64,000 bases of DNA from a virus: IMG/VR virus record IMGVR_UViG_3300035703_000060, positions 10,524 through 74,523 of that record. One strand, 5' to 3'. The translations under genes were made by a program, and so were the position numbers. Within the stretch, counting starts at the first letter, position 1, and each line of letters opens with the position of its first letter. The notes beneath the pieces are model-generated. The model worked only from the letters and a program-made list of their open reading frames with translations, ran no database searches and was not told the DNA's origin. Shown one piece after another: positions 6,001 to 64,000 of the stretch.

Positions 6001-7742
6001 TGTTAATGAATGTTGAAGTAGGATCAGCAGTTGGTATTGATACTTTAGGTAATGTTGGGATTGGTTCCACTCTTTTCCAGGTATCTTCTTTTAAAATTAC
6101 AAGACCTGGATATAACTTTAAAAGAGGTGACATCTTTAGACCAGTTGGATTAGTAACTGCAAAAGGTCTAACAAAACCAATACAAGAATTTAGACTTACG
6201 GTACTAGAAACATACAACGATAATTTTGCTGCTTGGCAATTTGGAGAACTTAACTTGATAGATTCTATAAAAAGATTTCAGGATGGTTCTAGACTAAATT
6301 ATCCATTATATTATGATGGTGAACTTCTAAGTTTCCAAACAAACGTTGATAATCCAGATTCCCAATTTATAGATTTTGATTCTTTATTAGTTATTTTTGT
6401 GAATGGGATACTTCAAGAACCAAAAATTGCATATGAATTTAATGGTGGATCTGCAGTTAGATTTTTAACGGCACCAAAAGTTGATGATAATATTGAAATT
6501 TATTTTTATGTTGGAACAAGAGGAGTAGACTCTAAGCAAGTTAATGTAGAACCAATACTACAAGTTGGAGATACAGTTCAAATTTACAGTAATAATGGAA
6601 ACTTAGAAAATACGGTTACTCAAAATACAAGAATTGTTTTTGATTTAATTTCATCAGATTTGATGGAAACTAATCTTTATTCTGAGCAAGGAGTGGATGA
6701 ACAAAATGAAAAACCATTGTATTGGATTAAACAAAAAGAAGACCTTATTATTAATGATATTACATATTCAAAGGCAAGAGATTCTTTAGAACCACAAGTT
6801 TACCCAACTGGAAAAATTATAAAAGATTTTTCAACAACAGATAGTGCGATATTTGTCGATAATGCAAGTTTCTTTGACTATGAACAAGAACTACCAACAG
6901 AAAAAATTGACCTCTTAATTATTCCGTCAAATGAATCCATAGAGGTTGGTATCTTAACTGCTGTAGTTTCTGCATCTGGAACTATTCAATCATTGTCAAT
7001 AGTAAATGGTGGAATTGGTTATACTGGATCTGGTGTAGATGTAAAAATATCAAATCCATATTATGGAATTGGTGTTGGAGTTGGAACAACTGCAACGGCG
7101 TCTCTTACAATATCTGGCGGATCTATAACTAGCACATCTATAATTAATCCTGGATTTGGATATACTAATACAAATCCACCACAAGTTATAGTAGAATATC
7201 CCACAATTGAGTACGAAGAGTGTCTCGATGCAAATGTTGTTGATGGATTTGATGGAGTAATTACTGGTATTGGAACAACATCAGGAATAGGTGTTAATTT
7301 GGCTCTAAAATTTAAGTTATTTAAATCTGATGAAGTTTATTCTGATTTATCAGTTGGTTATCCAATTTATATTTTCAATACTAACGTTGGTACTGGATTG
7401 ACAACTATTGATCAAAATGAAAATGATATTGTTGGAGTATCGACATCAACCTTGGACAATATTTATTATGTACATGGAATTGATACCATTACTGGCATTA
7501 TTACGTGTAACATATCAAATAACACAAACATTGTTGGTATTGCAACTACTGGTACAGTAGCAAGTCCTGTAGGTAAATTCTCTTGGGGTAGAATAAGTGG
7601 ATTTAGTCGTTCATCCAATCCAGTTTCTATTGGTGTAAGTGGATATAAAGTAAATTCAGGGTTATCATCATATCCTACAGTTCAAAGAAGAGGTTATGGA
7701 CTAAGAAGTACTGGTGCTCTTAAAAAAGATTTAACAACATAA
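3..7742 (+). CDS. Large baseplate wedge initiator-like virion protein (gp7-like), 5'-truncated by the window edge
   Basis: Frame is open from nt 3, so the TTG at 108 is internal. More than 2500 aa, beta-rich, with repeated 'I.NGG.GY..P' units and 'FVNGILQEP' motifs. Directly upstream of gp8, as in cyanomyovirus gene order. Confidence 0.7.
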   Translation, partial: QDFPKRVSIGSSIKIVGAEYDQYFKILNYFDDIDVLRVVRTSSSGLSTANSTISFLPDILRIKAKSSSTTQLENYLRYFNPNNSIGIGTWSGTFTSKSFYNGSELVTISIPSQSIYLPDHGFRTNQKVILKRPSGTTAIQVSNDGNTSFQILSGGETERELYIINKSKDYIGIVTSVNLTNTNGLYFTGAVGSNNYQYSFESVFDEVLCNIVDVKSTVSVSTIHNLSLNDVVDINVKPNKSVGVGGSSFINLKYIEDIKSITTKLLSFTPTEVNLSTHKINLTDHNLSTGDKVYYISTSVIGGLSTGTYYVHKIDANNIHLCETYIDSTSLPPSFIKFTSVGIGTQQFNLVQPKINVIRNNDLVFNVSDSSLEGYQFKLYTNSDLTKEFVSIASTGVFSLVGFNTIGISSDASITLKYSNNYPKKLYYTLEKNNELVELKDTVINSSEISFIDSFYSGRYNIFNVTNTTFDINLKDVPEESFYDFIDCDVLTYSTNSLSASGEVDKVKIISSGVNYKDIPSYTSSSLTNGRGLNIIPSSNNIGKINDITIKNSGFEYSNDKTLSPKADISKNIKITKSSTLTRVNVIDGGKKYPSAPNLVVVDSDTGKKIDSGLLRASMSGGGLGNSNIERVVIEIPVNGLPSTPVTIKAVDNSNGIIIDRVESSRSGILTCLIKTPILGFVDDPFEINDEVFVENIEIVQNSGIGFDSENHGYQFFKVIDYTSGSNPGRIVIQIPQLYGDPGIAVTFQINSFASIVKKLNYPIFSVDQDYSLFELGEQIAVVSDPENVIVTDLIVEKSRENYLKLSGDYELIIGDVIKGFSSGYLATVENISVSNGIFMVGAENTKSLDWDDETGKTSNDSQFLADNDYYQNLSYTIKSEKTWDEISSIVNSMVHPIGTKNFADTQISSSTSGIVSTGLVPSSQLDSIQSFISQSRTDIIKNLDFVKDYDTISNVSKIIRFKNIKLTDYVEAISNRVLQIDDISEEFSSTDDNDQRLNQIILALPKDQSYGKFLIQIKSTNQNLVEKGINQVQFTEIISLKNNNDAFFLEKNTISNLYGIGSDSNVFGTKIADITPVVDDVKNYYFLFTPTNPYDIDYEIKILGSRFLTTLDSNSSLTVGSSDIFNTVNVVSPQESEDILSLNSSKYTSFYSQIHVLNRTTFEMNYVEVYTTYDGNNVYYSDYYFDGTEKNDFSYGFIGSFGLSVSGGLIKLNYYNENNNDDITLRAKTICFNNSSSGIGTYRFKSTRQADGSERTVILESGTSTVSTSSSIFSYDSELFSSIKSLVKVSIGNTSSIHQLMTIHDDNNSIITEYPILLVGNNLGIGTFSSFVDENKFEVIFTPNIEFNGKSIKVQYYNEVFYTFLDEINTPQPLSLTPLYENLNIAKYFGLNSNNINRLNFKLRYRNVPIFAKTFDPFDVEVLNPSTGVFTIDNHFFSTGERLIYKPKSTFIGLGQSAMGIPSGSVTDIGISTNRLPSSVYAIKLSNNQFQIALTQSNANSGVAITFTYLGEGNAHMFEMHKKNEKSLITINNLAQYPLTFTGIAHSLFENGGQIGAGVTFFTLSGISSIKPTDLLKIDDEYMSVVNVGIGTSSSGPILFFTGNKNIVEVERGFVGSSATSHLDNSKVQVYRGSYNISEDQIYFTQPPRGNIFDLVQKDERNLERSRASFSGRVFLRQDYSTNVIFDDISSQFTGIGETFLLKSQGINTVGLGTTSGNGILFINGIYQTPFTQNVTDFNFRIIQNPSSGISSVVFTGIRNDNNEITISESDVNQNQLPRGGIIVSLGSTAGLGYAPLVGAKVRAILGVNGSITGVVGIATTGSPVAFTTVSYNNQTGVLNVFAPSTYNLIGANQVKIVGLAFTCPSNPGIVSYFPSHNESLNIIGIGTTSFSVQVGTSTLPHYYVGYGTIYPWYEELNFGSGYREPISVAVTESGHTGSAATITATVGAGGTLSFVVGAGGTGYSNPIIQISPPSYENLPIIGVSRLGIGETTDTGIGMLMNVEVGSAVGIDTLGNVGIGSTLFQVSSFKITRPGYNFKRGDIFRPVGLVTAKGLTKPIQEFRLTVLETYNDNFAAWQFGELNLIDSIKRFQDGSRLNYPLYYDGELLSFQTNVDNPDSQFIDFDSLLVIFVNGILQEPKIAYEFNGGSAVRFLTAPKVDDNIEIYFYVGTRGVDSKQVNVEPILQVGDTVQIYSNNGNLENTVTQNTRIVFDLISSDLMETNLYSEQGVDEQNEKPLYWIKQKEDLIINDITYSKARDSLEPQVYPTGKIIKDFSTTDSAIFVDNASFFDYEQELPTEKIDLLIIPSNESIEVGILTAVVSASGTIQSLSIVNGGIGYTGSGVDVKISNPYYGIGVGVGTTATASLTISGGSITSTSIINPGFGYTNTNPPQVIVEYPTIEYEECLDANVVDGFDGVITGIGTTSGIGVNLALKFKLFKSDEVYSDLSVGYPIYIFNTNVGTGLTTIDQNENDIVGVSTSTLDNIYYVHGIDTITGIITCNISNNTNIVGIATTGTVASPVGKFSWGRISGFSRSSNPVSIGVSGYKVNSGLSSYPTVQRRGYGLRSTGALKKDLTT

Positions 7743-9349: not shown

Positions 9350-12300
9350 ATGGCACAAAAAACTAATCTTAATGTCAATCCATATTTTGATGATTTTGAT
9401 TCAACAAAGAATTTTTATAAAGTTCTTTTCAATCCAGCAAAACCAGTACAGTCTAGAGAGTTAAATACTATACAATCTATTCTTCAAAACCAAATAGAGT
9501 CTTTTGGAAGTCATATCTTCAAAGAAGGTTCTATGGTTATACCTGGTGGAGTATCCTATGATTCAGAATATTGTGCCGTAAAATTAAATTCTACTTCTTT
9601 TGGTATAGACATTTCATTGTATATTGAAAAATATGTCGGACAAATTATTAGGGGAGAAGTTTCTGGGATATCTGCAGTAATAAAAGAAGTAGTTTTTCCA
9701 AATAGTAGTGGTGTAGAAACTATAACTCTTTATGTAAAATACTTAGAGTCAAATAACAGTTTTAATCAGTCATTCTTTTTAGATGGTGAATCTTTATTAT
9801 CTACAGAAGCAATATCTTATGGAATTAATAATACAGTAATATCTGACGGAACTCCCTTTGCTTCATTAATATCTGAGAATGCAACAGCAACGGGATCTTC
9901 AGTTTCTATTGATAATGGTGTTTATTTTGTTAGAGGAACTTTTGTAAATGTAAATAAACATACATTAATTCTGGATTATTACAATAATATTTCTTCTTAT
10001 AGAATAGGTCTAAGAGTATCTGAAACCATCATAACAACAAAAGATGATGAGACACTTTTTGATAATGCAAAAGGTTTCACAAATTTTGCATCCCCAGGAG
10101 CAGACAGATTTAAAATAGATTTGTCTCTGACAAAAAAACCTTTAACAGATATTAATGACACAGATTTTATAGAATTATTAAGAGTTGAAAATGGTTTTCT
10201 TAAAAAGATCGAAAATAAAACAGATTATAATTTAATAAAAGATTACATTGCACAAAGAACTTATGATGAATCTGGAAATTATACAGTTACACCATTTACA
10301 ATTTCTGTAAACAATTCTTTAAACAATTTACTTGGAAATAATGGAATTTATTTTGATGGAGATTTAACAACTGCAGGAAATACTCCTTCTGATGATTTAA
10401 TGTGTGTAAGTGTAAGTCCGGGTAAGGCTTATGTAAAAGGTTATGATGTTGAAAAAACTAATACAACTATTTTAGATGTTGAAAAACCAAGAGATACACA
10501 AACAGTTACTGGTGCTTTAGTCCCATTTAAGATGGGAAATATTTTAAGAATTAACAATATCTATGGTGCGCCAACTAACAAATCAACAGTATATTTTTAT
10601 AGTAAAAGAAGAAATGGTGCTACTTCATCTCCAAATGGAGTCGAATTAGGATCTGCAAGAGTTTATCTATGTAAACTTACTGATGCAGCGTATGACGGTG
10701 CTAAAACCAAATGGGATTTGTATCTTTATGATATACAATTTTACACTCATTTAACTTTAAATAATTCTTTAACTGCAACTCAATTACCAGCAACATCTAT
10801 TATTAAAGGAAATAGTAGTGGTGCAACTGGTTATGTTGTATCTGCAGGTACTAGCGGAAATTTAGCAATTATAAGACAAACATCTGGTGTATTTTTACCT
10901 AATGAAAATATTACCATAAATGGTACAACACTGACATCTAGAACTATTTTAAATGTAAAATCTTACACTTCTTCTGACATTAAATCTGTTTATTCTTCAG
11001 GTAGTCCTGCATTTTTAGCAGATTCTGTTTTAGACTCATTTATTCCATCTGGATTTAGTGGACAAGATCAAATCACTATAGGATCAGATGGGGTAGTAAG
11101 AACTACAAATAAACCATTTAGTGGTATATCTACCGATACCATTGTAAAATATTCTAGACCAGGATTTAGTACAGAAACATACAATAGCGTTACTAGTGTT
11201 GCTTCAGATGGAACAACATTTACCTTATCTGGAATATCATCAGTAACAAATGTTAATGATGGTGGTGTTACAAGTTCCAGTCTACAATCTAGATTTTTAG
11301 TTGGAAACTCAGTATTAAGAGATCAAAGTTCTGGGTATCTATATTCAGTCTTACCAAACACTAATATTTCTAGTATAGATCTTAATAATTCTCAGTTAAC
11401 ATTTTCAGCACAATCTACATCCTCAAATGTAATATCTGGAGGATCTTTAACTTTATCAACTGGTGATTTTAATTTACCTGGAAATTCTGGATCAATAAAA
11501 TTTGATACTTTTGATGCAGAAAAATATTCCATACACTATAGTGATGGAACTACTGAAACAATAACAGATGATCAAGTAACTTTTAATGCAGAGTATACAC
11601 AAATTACTTTTAATGGAATTACAAATGGAAAAACAACATCAATCATAAATGGCACTTTCGTAAAAACTGGGATACAAAGTAAAACAAAAGTTCACAAAAA
11701 GAGTACAATACTTAATGTCGAATTATCAAAGTATGAGCAATCTGGATCAAATGCAAATTCTTCAGTTAATGATGGATTAACATTTAATAGATATTATGGA
11801 TTGAGAGTTCAAGATGAGGAAATATGTTTAAGATATCCTGATGTAATTAGAGTATTAGCAGTATATGAATCACTAGATTCGTCTTTACCAACTTTTGACA
11901 AATTAAACTTTTCTTCACTATATGGCATTTCAAGCAACTCTATAGTTGGTGAAAATATAGTTGGAAAGACAAGTAAAGCATTAGCAAGAATTGTAAAGAA
12001 AGACTCTTTATATCCAAACAGTGTAGAAATAGTATATTTAAATAATAATAAGTTTCAAGTTGATGAAGAAGTTACTTTTGAAGACTCTAACATAGTCGCT
12101 CCAATTTCTTCATTATCTTTTGGACGATTTAAAAATATCACAAATATTTTTAAATTAGATAAAGGTCAAAAAAATCAATATTATGATTATTCAAAACTAA
12201 TAAGAAATAATAATGAACCAGAACCTAGTAGGAAAATTACTATAGTATTAGATCATTATGACGTTTCTCCAACAGATTCTGGAGATTTGTACAGTATCTT

Positions 12301-48352: not shown

Positions 48353-48396
48353 ACTGAAAAGTGTTATTCGTATAAATAATAATAGCACTTTTCAGT
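48353..48396 (+). promoter_or_regulatory. 16-bp hairpin with late promoter TATAAATA (48371-48378) in the loop
   Basis: ACTGAAAAGTGTTATT / AATAGCACTTTTCAGT (one G-U pair), ending 5 nt before the HNH ATG. Confidence 0.8.
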
Positions 48397-60044: not shown

Positions 60045-60181
60045 TACAATTACCAATAAATGAAAGAGAGTTAGATTATATAATTAAAATATTGGAAACT
60101 CGCAATCCACAACTTTATGCTAAGTTGTGGTCACATAAATTAAACAAATTAAAGGGAGAAAAAATTAATGGACTTTCTTAA
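60041..60181 (+). CDS. 46-aa hypothetical protein (not in ORF track)
   Basis: MIQLPINERELDYIIKILETRNPQLYAKLWSHKLNKLKGEKINGLS; ATGA overlap with the gp43 stop; fills the gap to uvsX. Confidence 0.6.
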   Translation: MIQLPINERELDYIIKILETRNPQLYAKLWSHKLNKLKGEKINGLS

Positions 60182-61175
60182 GGATATTGTAAAAGAAATA
60201 GGTGGTGAGTATACACAACTTGCCTCTGATATTGATGAAACTGAGATTTATGTTGACACGGGTTCGTACATTTTTAATGCACTGGTTTCAGGTAGCATAT
60301 TTGGTGGTGTATCTGGGAATAAGATTACTGCTATTGCTGGAGAGTCTTCTACTGGAAAGACTTTTTTCTCTCTCGCTGTGGTTAAGAATTTTCTTGATAC
60401 TCACCCCGATGGGTATTGTCTCTATTTTGATACTGAGGCTGCCATTACTAAATCCCTCTTGGAGTCACGCGGCATTGACACATCACGCCTTGTCGTGGTT
60501 AATGTTGTCACCGTAGAAGAGTTTCGAGGAACGGCACTCAAGGCAGTAGACATGTATATGAAAAAACCAGAAGCAGAACGTAAACCTTGCATTTTTGTGC
60601 TAGACTCTTTGGGTATGCTTTCAACTAGTAAGGAGATCAATGATGCCCTGAATGATAAAGAAGTTCGGGACATGACAAAATCACAACTTATTAAAGGTGC
60701 ATTTCGTATGCTTACCCTTAAACTTGGACAAGCAAAAATTCCAATGATTGTGACCAATCACACTTATGATGTTATCGGTGCTTATGTTCCTACTAAGGAG
60801 ATGGGTGGTGGTAGTGGTCTTAAGTACGCCGCTTCTACTATCATATATCTCAGCAAGAAAAAGGAGAAGGATGGAACAGAAGTTGTTGGAAACATTATCA
60901 AAGCAAAGACTGCTAAGTCGCGTTTGAGTAAGGAGAATAAAGATGTGGAGGTTCGTTTGTTTTATGATGAACGCGGTCTTGATCGATATTATGGATTACT
61001 TGAACTTGGTGAAACGGCAGGGATGTGGAAAAATGTGGCAGGACGTTATGAGATTGGTGGGAAAAAACTCTATGCAAAAGAAATTCTAAAAAATCCCGAT
61101 CAGTATTTTACCGAAGAAGTAATGCAGCAACTTGATGCTGCCGCGAAACAACAATTCTCTTATGGAACGAATTGA
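60168..61175 (+). CDS. uvsX: RecA-like recombinase UvsX
   Basis: 'AGESSTGKT', 'YFDTE', 'LDSLG', 'MGGGSGLKYAAS'. Confidence 0.96.
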   Translation: MDFLKDIVKEIGGEYTQLASDIDETEIYVDTGSYIFNALVSGSIFGGVSGNKITAIAGESSTGKTFFSLAVVKNFLDTHPDGYCLYFDTEAAITKSLLESRGIDTSRLVVVNVVTVEEFRGTALKAVDMYMKKPEAERKPCIFVLDSLGMLSTSKEINDALNDKEVRDMTKSQLIKGAFRMLTLKLGQAKIPMIVTNHTYDVIGAYVPTKEMGGGSGLKYAASTIIYLSKKKEKDGTEVVGNIIKAKTAKSRLSKENKDVEVRLFYDERGLDRYYGLLELGETAGMWKNVAGRYEIGGKKLYAKEILKNPDQYFTEEVMQQLDAAAKQQFSYGTN

Positions 61176-62493
61176 GACAACTATTCTCAGAAATTTAGTA
61201 TTTAATGAAGACTACTCGCGCAAGGTCATACCTTTTATTCAACCAGATTATTTTGAGCAAAAGACCGAGAAGGTCATTTTTGAAGAGATTGTCGAATTCA
61301 TTGTTAAGTATGGTTCGGCAATTACAATCGAAGCACTTAGTATCGAAATAGAAAATCGTACAGATTTAACGGAAGAACAGGTAAAAGAAGTTAGAGAAAT
61401 TAGTAAATCTCTCAATGATTTTCCAGTAGAGAAGCAATGGTTGCTTGATACAACTGAAAAGTGGTGTCGTGATCGTGCTATTTATCTGGCACTTATGGAA
61501 TCTATTCATATTGCAGATGGAAATAATGATAAAAAGAATAGGGATGCAATTCCTAACATTCTTTCAGATGCTCTTGCAGTATCTTTTGATAATAATATTG
61601 GACATGACTATCTACAAAACTATGAAGAAAGGTATGAGTTTTACCACAGAAAAGAAGACAAAATTGAATTTGATCTTGAATACTTTAACAAAATCACGAA
61701 AGGTGGTCTCCCTAACAAAACTCTTAACATCGCTCTTGCTGGTACGGGTGTCGGGAAATCTCTATTCATGTGCCATGTGGCTAGCTCCGTCTTGCTCCAA
61801 GGACGGAACGTTCTGTACATTACGCTGGAAATGGCAGAAGAACGCATTGCTGAAAGAATTGATGCAAATCTCCTGAACGTTCCAATTCAACAGTTGGTCG
61901 AACTCCCCAGAAAAATGTTTGAAACTAAAGTTACAAACATTGCTAAAAAGACTCAAGGATCACTTATAATTAAAGAATATCCTACTGCTTCGGCACATAG
62001 TGGTCATTTTAAGGCACTTCTTAATGAACTTGCTCTCAAGAAGTCATTTAGACCTGATATTATTTTTATTGATTATCTTAATATTTGTGCTTCCAGTCGA
62101 TATAAGGGTAATAGCAACATCAATTCCTACACATTCGTAAAAGCAATCGCAGAAGAACTTCGTGGTCTTGCTGTGGAATTTAATGTTCCTATAGTCAGTG
62201 CTACCCAAACTACTCGTTCAGGGTATTGCTTGGACTTGAAAACACAAGTTCAAACACCGCAAGGTATGAAAGAACTTTCAAATATTCAAGTTGGAGATTT
62301 GGTGCTTTCTAATACTGGATATAATGAAGTTCTAAATGTCTTTCCAAAATCTAAAAAGAAATCTTATAAGATTACTTTGGAAGATGGTAAAGAAATCATT
62401 TGTAGTGAAGAACACTTGTTCCCAACTCAAAATGGTGAAGTGAATATCAAAGAGGGTTTGAAAGAAGGTATGTGTCTTTATGTAAAGGAATAG
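61162..62493 (+). CDS. gp41: Replicative helicase gp41 N-terminal fragment fused to the N-intein
   Basis: 'AGTGVGKS', 'ITLEMAE', 'IFIDYLN', 'SATQTTRSGY', then the intein from Cys. Probable start is ATG 61162. Confidence 0.95.
   Translation: MERIETTILRNLVFNEDYSRKVIPFIQPDYFEQKTEKVIFEEIVEFIVKYGSAITIEALSIEIENRTDLTEEQVKEVREISKSLNDFPVEKQWLLDTTEKWCRDRAIYLALMESIHIADGNNDKKNRDAIPNILSDALAVSFDNNIGHDYLQNYEERYEFYHRKEDKIEFDLEYFNKITKGGLPNKTLNIALAGTGVGKSLFMCHVASSVLLQGRNVLYITLEMAEERIAERIDANLLNVPIQQLVELPRKMFETKVTNIAKKTQGSLIIKEYPTASAHSGHFKALLNELALKKSFRPDIIFIDYLNICASSRYKGNSNINSYTFVKAIAEELRGLAVEFNVPIVSATQTTRSGYCLDLKTQVQTPQGMKELSNIQVGDLVLSNTGYNEVLNVFPKSKKKSYKITLEDGKEIICSEEHLFPTQNGEVNIKEGLKEGMCLYVKE
62227..62490 (+). 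mobile_element. Split intein N-fragment (88 aa, gp41-1 type)
   Basis: Block A 'CLDLKTQV', block B 'CSEEHLF', then a stop codon. Confidence 0.95.
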
Positions 62494-62498
62494 TATGT

Positions 62499-62538
62499 GT
62501 AAGTTATACTTCTTATAAATAATAGTAGTATAACTTAC
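62499..62538 (+). promoter_or_regulatory. 12-bp perfect hairpin with late promoter TATAAATA (62514-62521) in the loop
   Basis: GTAAGTTATACT / AGTATAACTTAC, ending 4 nt before the GIY-YIG ATG. Confidence 0.8.
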
Positions 62539-62542
62539 TGAT

Positions 62543-63307
62543 ATGAAAGTAAAGATTTATCTAATTACCAACACAGCAGTCAATCCACATATGTATTATG
62601 TTGGATTGACTAAAAATGAATTGGATAGAAGATTGCAAGAACATATCACTTTTGGAAGGCACGAAGGAAATAAACTTCTGTCTGATGCTATTATTGAATA
62701 TGGTAAAAGAAACTTTACTATTGAAGTGATAGAAGAAGTTGATGAAAGTGAAGCAAGAATAAAAGAAGATTATTATATTCGCAAATATAAATCTCATTAT
62801 AGAGATGGATGTGGATATAATATGAAATATGAAACTTGTAATTATGAGAAACACTATCACGGAGCAAATCAAGAACTAATAGAAGAGAATATTAGAAATG
62901 GTAGGGCGTGGAACTATGGAATAAGTTTTTCTACACAATCAAAAGAAAAAATGAGAAAAACTAAAAAACATAGATACTCTCTTGGTGTTTATAAAAAGTT
63001 CAATACAAATCACTCACAAGAAACTAAAAACAAAATCGCAGAAAGTAAAAGAGGGAAAAAACTTACAGAGGAACATAAAAATAAAATAGCAGAATGTTCT
63101 TCTGGTAGAACTTGGATACATAAAAAAGATTTAAAAGAAAGAAAATTTATCAAAAAAGAAGAAATTAATCTTTACTTATTGAATGGTTGGGAAAGTGGAA
63201 AAGGTGTTATTTGGATTAATAATGTGGTAGAATGTTTATGTGTTGATATTTGGGATTATGAAAATTATACTGAAAAAGGATTTGTTTGTGGGAGGATTAA
63301 AAAATGA
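62543..63307 (+). CDS. GIY-YIG homing endonuclease with NUMOD3-like repeats
   Basis: 'KIYLITN...YYVGLT...RRLQEH', conserved E and 'GYN', then 'HSQETKNKIAESKRGKKLTEEHKNKIA'. Confidence 0.9.
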   Translation: MKVKIYLITNTAVNPHMYYVGLTKNELDRRLQEHITFGRHEGNKLLSDAIIEYGKRNFTIEVIEEVDESEARIKEDYYIRKYKSHYRDGCGYNMKYETCNYEKHYHGANQELIEENIRNGRAWNYGISFSTQSKEKMRKTKKHRYSLGVYKKFNTNHSQETKNKIAESKRGKKLTEEHKNKIAECSSGRTWIHKKDLKERKFIKKEEINLYLLNGWESGKGVIWINNVVECLCVDIWDYENYTEKGFVCGRIKK

Positions 63308-63867
63308 CTAAAACTTATGAATATAACGAAAACCTTGCGATTACAGATGAAGACACTCATAAGGCATTAGTGTCTCATTTCAATCAAATTAAAGAATTTG
63401 TGAATAATAAAAAGTTTGAATGGGAAGATGAAGAAATTCCAGAAGAAAACTATTGTATCACTTTTGATTTTGATGAGTGGTTAGAGGATACAATTCCATA
63501 TATGAAAAAGAATTATGAATATTTTAAAGAAGAGGAACCAAAAAATCTAAAAGAGAATACGATTGATTATGTAAATCAAATCAAAGATTATATTGATGGA
63601 TTTCTTTTGGGTCCAACTGCTCTTTATAACCGAAAGAGTATTGAAGCAAAAACTCATAAAGTTGCGGGTAAGAACTTTGATGAGATTGTGAAGTTTGTGA
63701 AGGAACTCAAAGAAAATAACAAGACGGTTTTTCTTTATGAGATTTCTTATACTCCTGAAAGAACAGAAACATTAGTTGTTGAAAAGAAACACGGAAGTAC
63801 AAATTATACTGAAACTTATCCCCAATCAGTTGCTTTTTATAAACTTCGTTATGCTATTTTGAATTGA
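63304..63867 (+). CDS. Hypothetical protein inside the split gp41 locus
   Basis: 187 aa, acidic; ATGA overlap with the endonuclease stop; ends 2 nt before the C-intein ATG. Confidence 0.75.
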   Translation: MTKTYEYNENLAITDEDTHKALVSHFNQIKEFVNNKKFEWEDEEIPEENYCITFDFDEWLEDTIPYMKKNYEYFKEEEPKNLKENTIDYVNQIKDYIDGFLLGPTALYNRKSIEAKTHKVAGKNFDEIVKFVKELKENNKTVFLYEISYTPERTETLVVEKKHGSTNYTETYPQSVAFYKLRYAILN

Positions 63868-63869
63868 AA

Positions 63870-63980
63870 ATGTTATTGAAAAAAATTCTAAAAATTGAAG
63901 AACTTGACGAAAGAGAACTTATAGATATTGAAGTGTCTGGAAATCATTTGTTTTATGCGAATGATATTCTCACACATAAT
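63870..63980 (+). mobile_element. Split intein C-fragment (37 aa)
   Basis: Block F 'IDIEVSGNHLFYAN', block G 'ILTHN', and +1 Ser nucleophile. Confidence 0.95.
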
Positions 63981-64000
63981 AGTAGTTCTGATGTTGAACT
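63870..64000 (+). CDS. gp41: C-intein fused to the gp41 C-terminal fragment (3'-truncated; not in ORF track)
   Basis: MLLKKILKIEELDERELIDIEVSGNHLFYANDILTHN|SSSDVE..., open to the window end. Confidence 0.95.
   Translation, partial: MLLKKILKIEELDERELIDIEVSGNHLFYANDILTHNSSSDVE

Follow-up and report, generated by a model that had tools for sequence, protein, structure and literature searches.

How does a virus obtain an intact replicative helicase when the gene encoding it runs into an intein fragment, stops, and resumes only after two other genes? We address this question for a 64,000-nucleotide stretch of viral DNA, hereafter the window, that covers positions 10,524 to 74,523 of the IMG/VR record IMGVR_UViG_3300035703_000060, a record estimated to be 35 % complete. 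At its 3' end the window carries the helicase gene gp41 divided between two open reading frames (ORFs), the first ending in an N-terminal intein half (IntN) and the second beginning with a C-terminal one (IntC). Very probably this is the 'fractured' gp41 gene of an uncultured T4-like cyanophage that carries an allele of the gp41-1 split intein, has its product rejoined by protein trans-splicing and harbours a selfish homing cassette in its gap. The parts of helicase and intein are as follows.

61162 to 62226, + strand: N-extein of the gp41 replicative helicase, 355 aa, ending ...SATQTTRSGY (Pfam DnaB_C, 66.9 bits against a cut-off of 27).
62227 to 62490, + strand: IntN, 88 aa, CLDLKTQ...CLYVKE, in frame with the helicase (matched by PDB 6QAZ).
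63870 to 63980, + strand: IntC, 37 aa, MLLKK...ILTHN (matched by PDB 6QAZ, residues 92-128).
63981 to 64000, + strand: start of the gp41 C-extein with Ser+1, SSSDVE..., truncated by the contig end.

All coordinates of an earlier reading of this DNA, the first-pass annotation, hold base for base, among them those of the helicase ORF, the IntN stop at 62493 and the IntC start at 63870. The distance it put at about 1.4 kb measures 1,376 nt from the IntN stop (TAG, 62491-62493) to the start of IntC, so that the halves are separate ORFs, and the ORF it had found missing from the ORF track does open at ATG 63870, where the sequence MLLKKILKIEELDERELIDIEVSGNHLFYANDILTHN encodes the 37-aa IntC ending in THN and is followed by SSSDVE. 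The annotation had read a Ser and then SSSDVE; the motif stands but the separate Ser does not, because Ser+1 is the first S of SSSDVE and one serine had been counted twice. The helicase ORF starts at ATG 61162 (MERIETTIL), the same start that is used by the homologue in S-SRM01, a Synechococcus phage from a freshwater reservoir and the closest cultured relative at the gp41 locus. Its Walker A loop ALAGTGVGKS (GTGVGKS) is uninterrupted in the window.

We compared the two exteins with the gp41 of S-SRM01, which is an uninterrupted protein of 459 aa reading ...TRSGF-GSSDVELTD.... The N-extein aligns without gaps to residues 1-355 at 92 % identity. The C-extein is unreadable on the window DNA because the 74,523-nt record itself goes no further than the window. 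An exact search of metagenome contigs with the terminal 35 nt retrieved contig L070, which is 99.9 % identical to window positions 62904-64000 (one mismatch in 1,097 nt) and extends 1.3 kb beyond. There the IntC ORF (L070:1040-1462, minus strand) continues into a C-extein of 103 residues up to a stop codon, with 85 % identity to S-SRM01 residues 357-459 and Ser+1 opposite Gly356, and a MazG-like gene lies 3' of the gp41 C-part, as it does in S-SRM01. Joined, the exteins measure 458 aa against the 459 aa of S-SRM01 gp41 and match it collinearly over its full length (residues 1-355 and 357-459), as the first-pass annotation had supposed. The continuation of the helicase beyond position 64000, which it had also anticipated, is found in L070 and in about 40 related IMG/VR loci, whose IntC ORF likewise runs on through gp41 residues 357-459, with 71-94 % identity to those of S-SRM01.

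The insertion site therefore falls after ...TRSG[YF], the N-extein ending opposite S-SRM01 residue 355 and Ser+1 standing opposite residue 356; Dassa 2009 places the intein at position 356 of P-SSM2 gp41 (PMC2677866). Intein-free alleles carry Gly at position 356, and all 42 intein-bearing alleles carry Ser+1. A second copy of gp41 was found neither in the window's record nor in four related records of 117-154 kb (35-73 % complete). From the single gp41 in these five incomplete records we infer that the helicase would be made solely by trans-splicing, as had been proposed before.

To establish the identity of the intein, we compared IntN and IntC each with all PDB chains by sequence search. 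The gp41-1 intein is the top match for both halves. IntN matches gp41-1 in 6QAZ with an expectation value (E) of 4.5e-51 and 82 of 87 aligned residues identical, the differences being I17L, T69N, M72V, S75K and G76E, while IntC matches with E 1.7e-18 and 36 of 37 residues identical, M2L being the sole difference. The next-best matches, other helicase and polymerase mini-inteins, have E values above 1e-4. The likeness to gp41-1 that the first-pass annotation had proposed is thus confirmed with five differences in 87 IntN residues and one in 37 IntC residues.

The residues that class-1 splicing uses are all present, namely Cys1, the block-B histidine H63 (SEEH), H36-N37 of IntC and Ser+1, and with two close gp41-1 variants as its halves the locus has the layout of protein trans-splicing that was originally recognized. 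The window allele also has the native junction residues Y-1, S+2 and S+3, without which gp41-1 splicing falls sharply (bioRxiv 10.1101/546465). The basic strand PKSKKKSYK of IntN and the acidic strand KIEELDERE of IntC, which form a charge zipper in the gp41-1 crystal structure (10.1101/546465), are both unaltered. Judged by its sequence, the window locus is a natural allele of the gp41-1 split intein with six substitutions. We hypothesize that the lysine-rich IntN strand and the acidic IntC strand bring the two precursors together, and that trans-splicing would then yield a 458-aa helicase with the junction ...TRSGY-SSSDVEL... (TRSGY-SSSDVELTDTSESFGLPATADLMFALISTEDLEGLGQILVK), which would be the only gp41 of the phage.

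To place this allele among its relatives, we scanned IMG/VR with IntN and obtained 49 loci of 83-100 % identity, some of them on contigs longer than the record studied here, up to 154 kb. At the protein level the relatives yield 35 different IntN sequences and 23 different sequences of IntC plus junction. None of 46 IntN alleles departs from Cys1 or the block-B His (EEH), and the terminal HN and Ser+1 are kept throughout 42 IntC alleles. The ratio of nonsynonymous to synonymous substitution (dN/dS, pooled Nei-Gojobori) is 0.12 for IntN and 0.145 for IntC; both intein halves are under purifying selection. Among cultured phages (INPHARED), tblastn with IntN gave no match above 44 % identity, and the megablast matches end at the extein/intein junction.

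The same conservation bears on the alternative that survives best, namely that the helicase fragments work as a non-covalent complex with the intein halves as a mere dimerisation handle, like Aeh1 NrdA, or that the substitutions in IntN have killed splicing. Phage enzymes that are split yet functional when unligated do exist, as exemplified by the endonuclease-split NrdA of Aeh1 (cited in PMC2677866); splicing activity is documented for the published gp41-1 sequence and predicted for the window allele, and both S75K and G76E alter charge. A mere handle, however, would need none of the catalytic residues that are kept in 46 IntN and 42 IntC alleles under purifying selection. None of the substitutions falls in block A, B or G, E76G is the commonest substitution among the alleles, and the crystallised gp41-1, to which 82 of the 87 IntN residues are identical, is widely used for fast trans-splicing (PMC10882715). 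We consider a helicase that is never ligated very improbable.

Even less credence is due to a decaying, non-functional helicase gene, whether from a defective phage or a genomic fossil. The contig is fragmentary (35 % complete) and 1.4 kb of selfish DNA interrupts the gene, but both half-genes are open and collinear with intact gp41, and the arrangement recurs with intact frames in at least 40 contigs from many samples. Runs of at least eight studies, mostly labelled freshwater or aquatic, contain at least half of the sampled words of the stretch. With dN/dS far under 1, the family displays neither the prevalent frameshifts or stops nor the dN/dS near 1 of a decaying gene. A metagenome assembly chimera, in which intein-bearing reads were joined to an unrelated helicase, can practically be dismissed, since, although strains differ in this region and contigs end near 62190-62220 in the run that matches the window best, independent contigs repeat the junctions exactly (L003 at 100 % from 62155, L070 at 99.9 %, L072 at 95 %) and single contigs bridge 62101-63217 (run X2) and 62485-63907 (run X1).

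A trans-spliced gp41 thus being the preferred reading, what fills the gap between the intein halves? It holds a hairpin with the motif TATAAATA, a homing endonuclease gene and a further ORF, orf187. These features, and the gene upstream of gp41, are as follows.

62493 to 62544, + strand: RNA hairpin in the 5' leader of the endonuclease gene (minimum free energy folding compared with shuffles).
62514 to 62521, + strand: T4-type late promoter motif TATAAATA within the hairpin loop (exact match).
62543 to 63307, + strand: putative homing endonuclease, free-standing, 254 aa (PHROG 314, PHROG 5123, Pfam NUMOD3).
63304 to 63867, + strand: orf187, candidate passenger ORF, 187 aa (no Pfam or PHROG match).
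60168 to 61175, + strand: UvsX, RecA-like recombinase (Pfam RecA PF00154, E 2.9e-18).

From 60168 to 64000 the + strand is a tightly packed string of genes in the same direction. UvsX precedes gp41, and its last 14 nt overlap the start of that gene; the UvsX-gp41 order is common to the window, S-SRM01 and the gp41 loci of Dassa 2009. The ATG of orf187 overlaps the endonuclease stop (ATGA, 63304-63307), and the orf187 stop precedes the IntC ATG by 2 nt. Looking for a separate promoter of the C half, we found one weak sigma-70-like site at 63779-63807 (9 of 12 matches), which we do not take as evidence because the region holds fewer such sites (12) than shuffles do (16.1). Metatranscriptome runs X15 and X16 contain contigs with a likeness of 90-95 % to IntN, to the endonuclease, to orf187 and to the junction of orf187 with IntC. 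As proof of transcription they were discounted, for they are contigs of relatives and DNA carry-over is possible.

The spacer of 49 nt from the IntN stop to the endonuclease start folds into the hairpin. Its main stem of 12 bp pairs 62499-62510 with 62527-62538, the 3' arm ending 4 nt ahead of the AUG at 62543, and an outer stem of 4 bp extends to the first two bases of that AUG. The minimum free energy is -15.8 kcal/mol (z -2.93), a stability equalled by 1 of 200 shuffles. Compared over 53 nt, the spacers of the endonuclease-bearing loci that were read show no difference or 1-3 changed bases, except in L045 (6 bases different) and L032 (unrelated spacer), a near-invariance to be compared with differences at 27 % of the IntN synonymous sites. 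The window holds nine copies of TATAAATA, all on the + (coding) strand. One of the other copies stands at window positions 48371-48378.

A hairpin with a late promoter has been drawn for gp41-1 to gp41-7 (PMC2677866 Fig. 4A), and Dassa 2009 likened the gp41 hairpin to the hairpin that blocks translation of Aeh1 mobE (PMC2677866). On this published precedent we infer a switch in which the hairpin would cover the ribosome landing site of the endonuclease and keep the gene silent on read-through early RNA, while late transcripts starting from TATAAATA in the loop, and so without the 5' arm, would allow the endonuclease to be translated.

The endonuclease matches PHROG 314 (homing endonuclease, E 6e-24) and PHROG 5123 (GIY-YIG motif, E 9e-11), its NUMOD3 DNA-binding motif scores 21.6 bits in Pfam against a cut-off of 20.4, and the motifs KIYLI...YYVG...R..EH...E...N can be recognized by eye. 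Because of the PHROG match, these visible motifs and Dassa's classification of the allelic genes, we assign the 254-aa ORF as a probable GIY-YIG-type homing endonuclease, with an N-terminal nuclease domain followed by NUMOD3 and with putative cleavage activity. The gene lies on the same strand as the split-intein halves and is present in 38 of the 42 related loci having both halves.

From 62155 on, L003 has the sequence of the window through IntN, hairpin and endonuclease (two mismatches) into orf187, while upstream of 62154 the identity of the two is mostly 60-90 %. L012 and L004 share a cassette of 1,642 nt with one mismatch between flanks that are 76-79 % identical, and the shared tract ends 27 nt inside the N-extein and 30 nt inside the C-extein. 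Near-identical cassettes thus sit in helicase genes that have diverged by 20-25 %; the breakpoints fall 27-72 nt from the insertion site, and the pattern points to recent homing. Over all pairs, extein distance says little about IntN distance (Spearman correlation 0.12), while IntN distance does follow endonuclease distance (0.61); nucleotide distances average 0.29 in the final 420 nt of the extein, a value inflated by four indel loci, and 0.09 in IntN.

In the run that matches the window best, X1, contigs fork at 62192-62217, where they pass into intein-free alleles (...SGF GSSDV... and ...SGY GNSDVEL...), so that cassette and targets coexist in one sample. Evidently the cassette, cargo included, has recently been copied between diverged helicase genes with short co-conversion tracts. 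This pattern fits endonuclease-driven homing into cassette-free alleles.

Besides the endonuclease the cassette carries orf187. Pfam and PHROG searches with this ORF were without match and an ESM Atlas search returned nothing usable; its cluster comprises 61 metagenomic relatives, all unnamed. The AlphaFold2 model is confident (predicted local distance difference test score 85.6) and resembles no solved fold above noise; Foldseek against the PDB gave at best E 0.047, to ribosomal proteins with a template modelling score of about 0.17. The closest predicted structure is that of an uncharacterised protein of Synechococcus phage S-CAM7. An HK97-fold capsid was considered as well and rejected, because the best VIA-align Z of 5.6 (residues 65-187) is under the tool's noise level of 7-8. 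Relatives of orf187 with 40-65 % identity also occur outside gp41 gaps, near uvsW/uvsY, near DNA ligase and elsewhere; the orf187 family is therefore not tied to the intein.

Between endonuclease and IntC the content differs from locus to locus. Across 42 loci, the slot is vacant in 8, in which the endonuclease adjoins or runs into IntC as in published loci, and it is occupied by the orf187 family in 7 loci (the window included), by another family, also unnamed and 114-198 aa long, in 17, by a 284-aa N6/N4 DNA methyltransferase in 3 loci (PF01555, E 3.5e-29; L028:1543-2397, L029:1505-2359, L041:2432-3286) or by singletons. A methylase beside an endonuclease might shield the carrier's own DNA.

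In six loci (L005, L008, L009, L010, L048 and L050) the endonuclease is lacking and only 234 nt separate the halves (L008:8265-8498). About 1.15 kb is deleted there, from the hairpin loop (after ...GTAAGTTATACTTC) to about codon 110 of the orf187 gene, and a chimeric ORF of 75 aa remains. Since the deletion spans from the hairpin loop into orf187, these endonuclease-less loci descend from the two-gene architecture of the window. A metatranscriptome contig of run X15 has exactly the same deletion joint, which connects 62512 with 63667 through the bases AAAGTTAGT.

It is conceivable, although we regard it as rather doubtful, that the split-intein gap is a second, exchangeable cargo slot and the cassette a vehicle that carries passengers into an essential gene. 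If true, such passengers would resist loss by simple deletion of the locus, and orf187 would help homing or benefit the phage.

Bringing these elements together, we propose that the gap is a selfish cassette. In a mixed infection the endonuclease would cut gp41 alleles without the cassette, and repair would copy IntN, endonuclease, orf187 and IntC as a single unit; orf187 would be a translationally coupled passenger travelling with the cassette. In the model of Dassa 2009 the target of the endonuclease is the intein.

Several points weigh against this account of the locus. Trans-splicing of the window allele is a prediction, and the C-extein is taken from beyond this contig, that is, from a 99.9 %-identical contig and from relatives. 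The records examined for a second helicase are 35-73 % complete, so that one may still exist elsewhere in the genome. For the endonuclease, the Pfam GIY-YIG domain PF01541 is absent even at E 10, the only Pfam trace at that threshold being a sub-threshold match to T5orf172, a GIY-YIG-related domain (E 0.024), and phmmer against the PDB gave zero sequence relatives. The total count of TATAAATA in the window equals the chance expectation, and the functional case for the motif consists of its strand bias and its position in the hairpin loop. Finally, plain homologous recombination between co-infecting phages would give the same sharp breakpoints as homing.

The relatives also reveal a second intein in this helicase. 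In some of them (L008:7092-7517, L005, L009, L010 and L040:~7078-7517) the Walker A loop is interrupted (ALAG|CVHPETK...VSSHN|TGVGKS) by a contiguous mini-intein of 142 aa that is homologous to the atypically split VidaL intein (PDB 6VGV, E 1e-9). In L013:607-4320, and similarly in L015, L041 and L045, gp41 is divided into three: the first piece closes with a 16-aa IntN (CVHPETKVKIRFRKIS), the second has a 125-aa VidaL-like IntC at its start and a gp41-1 IntN at its end, and the third begins with the gp41-1 IntC. In loci of the L013 type, two different split inteins would act on one helicase, which amounts to a natural three-fragment ligation. L013 also contains an antisense HNH-like ORF of 222 aa (1250-1918). 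S-SRM01 has an annotated homing endonuclease gene between uvsX and gp41 (L002:4433-5014), at the place of the 14-nt overlap in the window, and part of this gene, L002:4439-4606, shares 46 % identity with the antisense ORF of L013 across 56 aa.

A fractured gp41 with a gp41-1-type intein is a kind known since 2009 and common in viral metagenomes; the arrangement, the UvsX neighbour, the GIY-YIG gene and the hairpin with its late promoter were all published then (PMC2677866). New from the window are the allele with six substitutions, the gap with two genes and the 74.5-kb context, and new from its relatives are clear homing footprints and a variable cargo slot. The footprints are direct traces of a recent lateral transfer of the entire cassette among diverged helicase genes of cyanophages, and the loci give evidence of passenger genes riding in the split-intein gap. 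As gp41-1 is now a standard tool for fast protein ligation, the 35 IntN and 23 IntC-plus-junction sequences constitute a ready map of tolerated substitutions in a heavily engineered intein. The native host system is unavailable for experiments, because no cultured phage in INPHARED carries this intein (best match 44 % identical).

The closest known systems are gp41-1 to gp41-7 (Dassa 2009, PMC2677866; PDB 6QAZ, 6RIZ), which have the same host gene, the same insertion point and the same split into 88 + 37 aa, and which share with the window an endonuclease gene in the gap, of GIY-YIG type there and probably here too, the TATAAATA hairpin leader, UvsX upstream and purifying selection (PMC2677866). 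In the published loci the 3' end of the endonuclease gene overlaps the IntC gene by 6-69 nt (15 loci, PMC2677866), whereas in the window this overlap is absent and orf187, wedged between the two, takes over the overlap with the endonuclease. The overlapping form occurs in the relatives L013, L026 and L036 and is thus frequent in the family but not obligatory. The text of Dassa 2009 makes no mention of a second gene in the gap (PMC2677866). The gp41-7 locus, which has lost its endonuclease (PMC2677866), is resembled by the six relatives with the 234-nt gap and not by the window. While the published loci are short read assemblies that are 89-100 % alike, the window belongs to a 74.5-kb record, and its relatives, unlike those loci, reveal helicase backgrounds that are 20-25 % diverged.

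The predicted endonuclease has the same bipartite design, an N-terminal nuclease followed by NUMOD3, as GIY-YIG endonucleases of T4-like phages such as I-TevI and the Seg proteins; compared with free-standing enzymes of this group, its Pfam GIY-YIG match is below significance and it has no solved sequence relative. As in the window, Aeh1 mobE and T4 I-TevI have a late promoter in a hairpin just upstream of the start codon. The cyanobacterial DnaE split intein (Npu/Ssp) likewise belongs to class 1 and is split in nature; it restores an essential replication protein by trans-splicing, its halves meeting at a charge-complementary interface. Its halves, unlike those of the gp41-1 type, lie at distant loci with no endonuclease between them, and the charge polarity is reversed, IntN being basic and IntC acidic in gp41-1 (PMC2677866; 10.1101/546465).

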